A program made the position numbers and the translations under genes. The notes beneath the pieces were generated by a model. The model was not told the DNA's origin and did no database searches. It worked only from the letters and a program-made list of their open reading frames with translations. From Escherichia coli (GTDB taxonomy: Bacteria > Pseudomonadota > Gammaproteobacteria > Enterobacterales > Enterobacteriaceae), in the NCBI RefSeq assembly GCF_024223415.1, contig NZ_CP100500.1: 64,000 bases of DNA. One strand, 5' to 3'. Every line of letters begins with the position of its first letter. Position 1 is the stretch's first letter. This document shows, piece by piece, positions 62,159 through 62,448 of the stretch.

Positions 62159-62335
62159 TTATTCATCCCACGGCTTGTTTGCAGCCTCCCTTGCGGCCTG
62201 CTGCGCAAAATAAATCAATTCAAAAGCTAACTGTTCTCCTTTTTCCAGCGAACTGAGAAGCCTTGCTGTTTCCAGCATGTCCGCGATATACCCGAAAATA
62301 TCTGCCTGATGTAACTGCGTGATCTTGATAGCCAT
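62159..62335 (-). CDS. Small phage protein of unknown function (58 aa from the SD-preceded ATG; 85 aa if the upstream ATG at 62416 is used)
   Basis: ATG at 62335 preceded by GAGG; the upstream 27 codons of the track ORF overlap the palindromic operator-like sites, so the shorter start is preferred. Confidence 0.5.
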   Translation of the reverse strand: MAIKITQLHQADIFGYIADMLETARLLSSLEKGEQLAFELIYFAQQAAREAANKPWDE

Positions 62336-62374
62336 AGCGTTAACCTCGATGGAACCACTGCGGTCCATTTTAGT

Positions 62375-62413
62375 AAACCACCGTGGTTTATTGATGTCAA
62401 CACCACCGTGGTG
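62375..62413. promoter_or_regulatory. Pair of perfect palindromic operator-like sites in a divergent promoter region
   Basis: AAACCAC-C-GTGGTTT (62375-62389) and CACCAC-C-GTGGTG (62401-62413), centres 25 bp apart, between the leftward small-gene/Rha operon and the rightward Mnt-like gene. Confidence 0.5.
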
Positions 62414-62448
62414 CATACTTTGAGAATCGAGTTTATGAGGTAGTTACT

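Follow-up and report, generated by a model that had tools for sequence, protein, structure and literature searches.

Where does a small phage gene begin when the regulatory DNA in front of it can be read in the same frame, and what does such a gene encode? The question is raised by a prophage locus in a stretch of 64,000 nucleotides (nt) from Escherichia coli (contig NZ_CP100500.1 of assembly GCF_024223415.1; this whole stretch is called the window). In its mechanical list of open reading frames (ORFs), an ATG-initiated ORF of 85 amino acids (aa) is given on the minus strand (62159..62416). A sequence-only reading of the window had proposed that this ORF starts at an ATG inside a palindrome, its early codons being two operator-like sites, and that an in-frame ATG at 62335 with a GAGG Shine-Dalgarno (SD) sequence gives a 58-aa protein instead. 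Both proposals were borne out by the comparisons described here, every one of which favours 62335. The true gene is probably the 58-codon ORF running from 62335 to 62159 on the minus strand, with an extra N-terminus in the longer ORF that is promoter and repressor-binding DNA; this degree of confidence applies to the explanation as a whole, i.e. to start, operon, operators and mechanism taken jointly. The 85-aa ORF would exist only because, by chance, the regulatory DNA of this single prophage contains no stop in that frame.

On the minus strand, the first codons of the 85-aa ORF read ATG CAC CAC GGT GGT GTT GAC ATC AAT AAA CCA CGG TGG TTT ACT AAA. Codons 1-5 correspond to the palindrome at 62402-62412 (operator site A), codons 6-7 to TTGACA and codons 10-14 to the palindrome at 62377-62387 (operator site B), codons 1-14 holding both palindromes. 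The ATG itself (62416-62414) lies in the complement of CATACT, the proposed -10 element of the divergent repressor promoter, and no SD could be read directly in the sequence preceding it. Before the in-frame ATG at 62335-62333 stands GAGG (62347-62344), separated from it by 8 nt; this start gives a 58-aa product beginning MAIKITQ. A purine-rich SD (GAGG, AAGG or GGGG) is present at the same spacing in all relatives.

For comparison, 27 distinct upstream regions were used, taken from the loci found by exact-protein look-up and by a scan of IMG/VR. In 26 of the 27 the 58-aa start is an ATG, and a purine-rich SD precedes it by 7-9 nt; the remaining one (L009) has ACG. The upstream frame stops after 2-11 codons in 19 regions, and an in-frame ATG at the position of site A occurs in this window only. 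In L001, a 1-nt indel puts the palindrome ATG out of frame, while in L002 and L003 a stop occurs 7 codons upstream of the 58-aa start without any intervening start codon. In an exhaustive phmmer search, homologues down to 46% identity align with the 58-aa form from the first residue of each. The RefSeq/PGAP call in three E. coli prophages is likewise a 177-nt gene of 58 aa (WP_001007475.1).

Two longer products have to be weighed against these data. If the 85-aa protein were real and translated from ATG 62416, its operator-encoded residues would form a genuine N-terminal domain; the frame is open, it has an ATG start, and several database entries list longer forms of 69-85 aa. This ATG, however, is in frame in the window alone and lacks an SD, the indel in L001 breaks the frame, and in 19 regions a stop is met 2-11 codons before the conserved start. 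The ATG is moreover situated upstream of a conserved TTGACA -35 element and coincides with the -10 of the divergent promoter, the segment is exchanged in relatives for an unrelated operator cassette while the 58-aa protein stays the same, and arc of phage P22 displays the same open-frame artefact. An 85-aa protein is considered extremely improbable. The second candidate is the intermediate in-frame ATG 62368 (codon -11), from which a 69-aa protein would be made as in the Shigella boydii annotation P0003; both the ATG and a 69-aa database entry exist. It has no SD, though, and is missing or out of frame in most relatives. Because it is located in or beside operator site C and within 4 nt of the proposed -10 of the operon promoter, it is probably at or before the 5' end of the transcript, and a start at this codon has hardly any likelihood.

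The start at 62335 delimits a frame that evolves as a coding sequence. Over its 174 nt, 10 synonymous differences and 1 non-synonymous difference were counted towards L003, and L001-L003 differ among themselves by 7-8 synonymous and no non-synonymous changes, nearly all at third codon positions. The Nei-Gojobori ratio of non-synonymous to synonymous substitution rates (dN/dS) was 0.02-0.23 in the 16 measurable comparisons. Residues such as Q7, L8, H9 and G33 are invariant down to 46% identity. This substitution pattern indicates that the 58-aa frame is under purifying selection and that its product is a real, conserved small protein.

The closest RefSeq protein, WP_001007475.1, is identical to the window protein at 57 of 58 residues (K4Q). 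It is found in E. coli prophages at yfhL, including the Stx2b prophage of strain STEC1590, with the same neighbours, SD and start; it is annotated as uncharacterised without a recorded function, and only in the window does an operator region lying in frame produce the longer mechanical ORF. In terms of annotation, the outcome is an ordinary start-codon correction, already correct in RefSeq for the relatives. The family is small (18 clusters at 90% identity, 9 representatives at 50%) and is restricted to Escherichia/Shigella, Salmonella, Serratia and a few further assemblies; almost all members are 57-60 aa long, and the E. coli chromosomal relatives share 91-94% identity. An exhaustive phmmer search of 1.84 billion representatives returned 9 relatives, all from this same family. 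The sequence-only reading had recognised no family in the ORF, in agreement with the curated collections: searches with the 58-aa and 85-aa proteins gave no match in Pfam (E <= 1), PHROGs, NCBIfam or PADLOC, and the best PDB sequence match to the 58-aa protein had E = 1.2. With tblastn against 50,697 INPHARED phage records only chance matches and no copies were obtained, and the literature searched contained no reference to the 58-aa protein or to an immI-like module of yfhL or Stx2b prophages.

The DNA read as the longer N-terminus belongs to a 113-bp intergenic region in which two putative back-to-back promoters with overlapping -35 elements and three Mnt-type operators, 23-25 bp apart, could be recognised. 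A repeat finder reported three copies of an 11-mer with spacings of 23 and 25 bp: ACCACTGCGGT at 62354-62364 (site C) and ACCACCGTGGT at 62377-62387 and 62402-62412. Besides the two copies of ACCACCGTGGT, which are 25 bp apart, ACCACSGTGGT has no exact match in the 64 kb; approximately 0.03 exact matches per window are expected by chance (our own estimate). Site C, which was absent from the sequence-only reading, is a degenerate copy here and a perfect ACCAC(N)GTGGT in L001, L009, L014, L029 and L030. The layout TTGACA-17-TTTACT proposed for the promoter of the 58-aa gene is kept in the relatives and matches the P22 promoter Pant (TTGACA-17-TATATT); TTTACT was missed by a simple scan because it lacks an A at position 2. 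Its TTGACA overlaps by 2 bp the -35 TTGATG (62391-62396, plus strand) of the divergent repressor promoter, and the L001 homologue of the latter, TTGATG-17-CATAAT, was picked up by the promoter scan, as were Pant and Pmnt of P22, the positive control. The sequence-only reading had also left the palindromes in the 5' leader of the 58-aa gene. Of the three sites, only the degenerate site C would lie at or near +1; by analogy with Pant of P22, palindromes 1 and 2 would be located in the promoter spacer and beyond the -35, respectively, and not in the leader.

The beta-strand of the repressor and the operator half-site covary perfectly in 25 loci, QMK(I/V)R occurring with ACCAC and QLRVR with CTCAC, and the palindromes appear from this covariation to be operators of the ribbon-helix-helix (RHH) repressor encoded next to them. 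Relatives fall into two classes, those matching the window through the intergenic region and those in which the match ends at about 62346. This position, between site C and the SD, is a mosaic breakpoint: SD and gene are conserved on one side, and operator/repressor cassettes are interchangeable on the other. A different operator cassette replaces the segment wholesale in L002, L003 and L007; right of the breakpoint, L002 and L003 carry CTCACAATGAG-type palindromes and a different repressor, with the small gene unchanged. An identical 58-aa protein occurs with both operator types. Because the same protein stands beside two operator/repressor specificities, it does not read the operators. The specificity module would comprise the Arc-like gene, the Mnt-like gene and the operators, with the 58-aa gene placed just outside.

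The arrangement resembles immI of P22, a secondary immunity region composed of mnt, Pmnt/Pant, arc, sar and ant (PMC2629481). That the ORF occupies the position of arc, as the sequence-only reading had suggested, is supported by the divergent Mnt homologue, the shared operator core and the Rha/antirepressor-like gene downstream. On the arc strand of P22 the order is TTGACA, 17 nt containing the arc operator, TATATT, 6 nt, the mnt operator AGGTCCACGGTGGACCT, SD and the ATG of arc; in the intergenic region as a whole, the mnt operator GGTCCACCGTGGACC follows TTGACA-17-TATATT and precedes the SD and ATG of arc. In the window the order is TTGACA, 17 nt with site B, TTTACT, 6 nt, site C, GAGG and ATG, and the core CCACCGTGG of the P22 mnt operator is common to the operators of the window. 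The window and P22 thus have the same putative promoter/operator architecture.

Further features link the two regions. In both, an Mnt homologue is divergent from an antirepressor operon, a TTGACA promoter has one operator in its spacer and another at about +1, and a small first cistron precedes an antirepressor-type gene. In the window, three ACCAC(N)GTGGT palindromes, the putative operators of the RHH repressor, surround the TTGACA and -10 of the proposed antirepressor promoter, and an antisense-oriented terminator is located in the intercistronic gap where sar lies in P22. There are also differences. The first cistron of the window encodes an unrelated acidic helical protein and not arc, while its Arc homologue is found beyond the mnt-like gene, where the early-left operon ends. 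Three Mnt-type operators are present and no separate arc operator; the -35 elements of the window overlap, whereas in P22 each -10 faces the -35 of the other promoter. The downstream gene is of the Rha family and not P22 Ant, the region is situated beside int/xis instead of in the late operon, and the window has no Rfam match to sar. The module is a rearranged variant of P22 immI.

P22 arc also provides a parallel for the start-codon problem. Upstream of the annotated start, its frame (L036 775-999, minus strand) continues without a stop for 21 codons and reaches an ATG in the Pant -35 / Pmnt -10 region. The annotated arc coding sequence is the SD-proximal form of 53 aa, which we take to be the experimentally determined protein. 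A mechanical ORF call on P22 arc would repeat the error made in the window.

The position of arc invites the assumption that the 58-aa protein is an analogue of Arc or Cro, i.e. a DNA-binding autoregulator that shuts its own promoter via the palindromes or another operator. It occupies exactly the arc position of immI, it is of a similar size class to Arc (Pfam PF03869, an RHH protein; 53 versus 58 aa) as the first gene of an antirepressor operon, and its layout, an extended stretch at the N-terminus and then two helices and a Gly-containing turn, is superficially RHH-like. The properties of the protein, however, are different. It has an isoelectric point (pI) of 4.74 and a net charge of -4.4, and the pI is 4.1-5.9 in all 23 family members compared to 9.98 for P22 Arc. 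BLASTP against Arc gave no match and hhalign against RHH proteins a probability of 0.3%; neither a profile match, nor an N-terminal strand, nor a basic surface expected of the Arc/MetJ RHH type was found, and no beta-ribbon is predicted. The identical protein accompanies two unrelated operator specificities, and a true Arc homologue, carrying the recognition residues of the Mnt-like protein, is encoded nearby. An autoregulatory role of this kind is very unlikely.

Two narrower versions of this idea were tried and rejected. A cryptic RHH fold, with MAIKITQL as the beta-strand and two helices, was dismissed on the hhalign result, the missing strand in the tandem AlphaFold2 (AF2) model and the acidic pI. 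A Cro-like role, suggested by three operators 23-25 bp apart as in lambda OR, was dismissed because the same protein is found with different operator types and relatives carry separate CI/Cro proteins.

Structure prediction and remote homology search, which had been proposed as a check on the ORF, gave a two-helix hairpin to which no family or fold could be assigned. The AF2 monomer, based on a 20-sequence alignment, reached a predicted local distance difference test score (pLDDT) of 81, with helices at residues 10-28 and 34-53 and no strand by DSSP. A tandem fusion modelled as a dimer surrogate consisted of four helices without beta-strand (predicted template modelling score 0.68). The 58-aa protein is predicted to be a two-helix hairpin, which in these models probably pairs into a four-helix bundle. 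Foldseek searches (monomer against PDB and BFVD, tandem against PDB) yielded nothing more specific than hairpins and four-helix bundles of a generic kind, all at E >= 0.16. One of the top-ranking entries was Aqs1 (PDB 6v7u), a regulator-binding small phage protein of about 57 residues that is also a two-helix hairpin. With E = 4 and a probability of 0.21 this match lacks significance, the two sequences are not similar, and so simple a fold has no diagnostic value.

The following mechanism could be proposed. The 58-aa gene would be the first cistron and the Rha-type antirepressor-like gene the second cistron of an operon divergent from the Mnt-like repressor gene. In the prophage state, the operon would be silenced by the Mnt-like protein; once active, it would yield the small acidic protein together with the antirepressor-like protein. 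The small protein would most likely act by protein-protein contact and not by DNA binding, for instance as a modulator or partner of the antirepressor or of a basic repressor. A small acidic helical protein acting via protein-protein contact is the most defensible reading. A more specific proposal, that it represents a new kind of small phage regulator placed in the arc slot of an immI-type circuit, acting by protein-protein contact and tuning the induction of yfhL prophages including those carrying Stx2b, is offered tentatively, as a suggestion with a limited chance of being correct. On this proposal the protein might, for instance, cover the DNA-binding face of the RHH repressors or of the prophage CI repressor, in the manner of a DNA mimic or mini-antirepressor, or it might control the Rha-type antirepressor.

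The mechanism would also include an antisense RNA, comparable to sar, that ends at the stop codon of the small gene and probably limits translation of rha. The gap of 59 nt between the 58-aa gene and rha holds a GC-rich hairpin, and the T-run of the corresponding terminator covers the stop codon of the small gene. Across 13 distinct loci, 97.4% of the hairpin cells were paired, compared to 14-50% when the partner was slid, and 6 of 12 pairs had changed on both sides, which was equalled in 0-1 of 500 shuffles. The hairpin is oriented to the antisense (plus) strand: 152 of 156 pairs are formed there versus 133 of 156 on the sense (minus) strand, G.U pairs number 22 versus 3, and the stem is followed by 6-7 T in 9 positions in 13/13 loci, versus 0-6 of 9 on the sense strand. 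A candidate promoter for the RNA, TTGCTT-18-TGnTAAAGT, recurs in L001, L003, L006, L011, L026, L028 and L030, and most Rha-type loci have TTGCTT-18-TGnTA(A/G)AGT; the candidate promoter overlaps conserved rha codons and was not picked up by the simple scan. From promoter and terminator together, an antisense RNA of about 60 nt starting at about 62100 and complementary to the SD of rha is predicted. The local similarity to P22 Psar/sar (TGnTAnAnTATTCATG ... TTCTCC ... GTTACCGC) scores 26 versus 15.3 +/- 2.2 for shuffled sequences, of which 1/1000 reach this value. The Rfam scan of 58000-64000 (E <= 10) gave chance matches to miRNA families only and no sar, and a simple promoter/terminator scan of the window gave nothing relevant. 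The element is a well-supported terminator with an inferred RNA.

This terminator bears on the possibility that the ORF acts in cis, its amino-acid sequence being secondary, and that its translation controls rha by coupling or by opening the hairpin or antisense target. Phage P1 offers a parallel in icd, which precedes ant. Such a role would suit the position of the stop codon, which falls within the antisense terminator's T-run at a distance of 6 nt from the hairpin, and gene callers overlap both genes in Serratia and L011. These overlaps vanish, however, once the start of the downstream gene is moved to the internal Met behind the hairpin, the two genes of the window are separated by the gap of 59 nt, and the protein is under strong purifying selection with residues invariant down to 46% identity. 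A purely cis-acting ORF seems improbable, but cis and protein roles are not mutually exclusive.

Several observations weigh against a 58-aa gene with the operon, operators and mechanism described above. In the allele of L009 / P0004 the 58-aa start codon is ACG and an ATG lies upstream in frame, and a subset of the E. coli type-1 loci has an upstream frame open for 49 codons, with starts that vary by locus. The simple sigma-70 scan of the window picks up none of the three proposed promoters, whose positions were set by eye and by analogy. The E. coli loci also have a modest T-run on the sense strand at the hairpin. The downstream partner is not fixed (Rha types, KilA-N/ANT), and in one decayed locus the small gene persists although both neighbours are missing, so that the loci point to no particular partner. 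The tandem-dimer model varies across five AF2 runs (pLDDT 47-71), and the proposed function has no homology or structural match behind it in any search of the protein.

Two of these loci can be described further. In L009 (4001-4234, P0004), site B carries ATGAACC, which creates the in-frame upstream ATG; gene callers give 77 aa, and two contigs have this form. The allele may be defective or may use rare alternative initiation. In L037 (2852-3198, P0022), a metagenomic contig, the small gene occurs without the Mnt/Arc pair or rha beside an apparent truncated SNF2 N-terminus; it is apparently a decayed prophage end with uninformative context.

The coordinates of the features discussed are collected in Table 1.

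Table 1. Features of the immI-like region, with positions in the window.
Feature	Position	Strand	Remarks
58-aa coding sequence, MAIKITQLHQADIFGYIADMLETARLLSSLEKGEQLAFELIYFAQQAAREAANKPWDE	62159..62335	-	stop TAA 62159-62161; start, SD and length kept in relatives
Shine-Dalgarno GAGG	62344..62347	-	8 nt 5' of ATG 62335; read from sequence
27-codon N-terminal extension, probably spurious	62336..62416	-	promoter/operator DNA, noncoding; frame unconserved
Operator site C, ACCACTGCGGT, degenerate	62354..62364	.	immediately past the -10, where P22 has the mnt operator
Proposed -10 TTTACT of 58-aa/rha operon promoter (putative Pant analogue)	62372..62377	-	17 nt from TTGACA
Operator site B, ACCACCGTGGT (full palindrome AAACCACCGTGGTTT, 62375-62389)	62377..62387	.	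inside operon promoter spacer
-35 TTGACA of 58-aa/rha operon promoter	62395..62400	-	TTGAC(A/T) in every locus regardless of operator type
Operator site A, ACCACCGTGGT	62402..62412	.	in spacer of divergent repressor promoter
Proposed -10 CATACT of Mnt-like repressor promoter	62414..62419	+	TTGATG-17-CATACT; CATAAT/CATACT kept in type-1 and type-3 loci
Antisense-oriented intrinsic terminator	62124..62163	+	stem 62124-62135 / 62142-62153, loop 62136-62141, T-run 62154-62163
Candidate antisense-RNA promoter, TTGCTT, 18 nt, TG-n-TAGAGT	62064..62093	+	in first rha codons
240-aa Rha-family / antirepressor-like protein, second cistron of operon	61377..62099	-	PHROG 63 'anti-repressor Ant', E = 2.5e-21
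104-aa RHH repressor, Mnt homologue with C-terminal helical extension	62449..62763	+	Pfam Arc, E = 3e-12
46-aa Arc homologue	62782..62922	-	Pfam Arc, E = 6e-10; 41% identity to P22 Arc

The 104-aa repressor, whose gene is divergent from the 58-aa gene, shares 49% identity with residues 1-37 of P22 Mnt, the DNA-binding domain (E = 2e-11). The gene of the 46-aa Arc homologue closes the leftward early operon and converges on the mnt-like gene. In its beta-strand, the protein has the recognition residues (Q-K-R) of the 104-aa protein, and its type co-varies with the operator type. In each prophage compared (the window and L001-L012), a long Mnt-like and a short Arc-like RHH protein with the same beta-strand recognition residues are present, QFKLR in the short one together with QMKIR in the long one, or PQLRVRIP in both; Q-K-R accompanies ACCAC half-sites and Q-R-R accompanies CTCAC.

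The 240-aa protein also has a weak Pfam Phage_pRha match, and every intact locus has a Rha or KilA-N/ANT gene after the small gene. No partner domain shared by all the downstream proteins was found: most have a common C-terminal domain (GEYVPVSKAAWKTGLSDSTCRKLIGF...), which is absent in Serratia (KilA-N/ANT) and L012. The Rha-family protein of the window (61377-62099, compared with L001, L003 and L006) is a mosaic: its N-terminal domain is of the Salmonella type (LSMTHKEIADLVGSR...), and its C-terminal ~110 residues (GEYVPVSKAAWKTGLSDSTCRKLIGF...) are common to E. coli relatives with other N-terminal domains. In L004 (4158-5012) and L011 (4170-5042) the downstream gene is called as overlapping the small gene and running through the hairpin; these calls look over-extended, an internal Met after the hairpin (MHTIPNH..., MSKSTLTL...) fitting the starts in other loci. 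Another ORF of the window, encoding an AlpA/HTH (helix-turn-helix, excisionase-like) protein at 59741-60139 on the minus strand, is given as 132 aa from GTG with an overlap of ~200 nt with the 3' end of the SNF2 gene; it is probably over-extended mechanically, its RefSeq homologues having 66 aa (201 nt).

The prophage adjoins yfhL, and its flank in the window is E. coli chromosome (99% identity); the window ends inside this prophage (58341-64000). A close relative is the Stx2b prophage of STEC1590 (PMC12029490), in which Q, stx2b and genes for lysis and the tail are accompanied by a separate CI-like/Cro-like pair. Close relatives integrated there (L013) are Stx2b-converting prophages with a family-A DNA polymerase, SNF2, VRR-NUC, CI/Cro, Q and stx2b. 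Because the relatives carry a CI/Cro pair elsewhere, the Mnt/58-aa/Rha region is a secondary immunity region.

Taken alone, the start correction is relevant to annotation quality only, but the locus provides a clean example of operator and promoter DNA masquerading as the N-terminus of a protein, as P22 arc likewise does. The yfhL prophages, including the Stx2b-converting ones, carry a rearranged immI-type secondary module with interchangeable Mnt/Arc/operator cassettes, a probable sar-like RNA and, as the first product of the antirepressor operon, a strongly conserved small acidic protein. If it is true that this protein modulates antirepression, it would give a new point of access to prophage induction and, through it, to the release of toxin by these strains.

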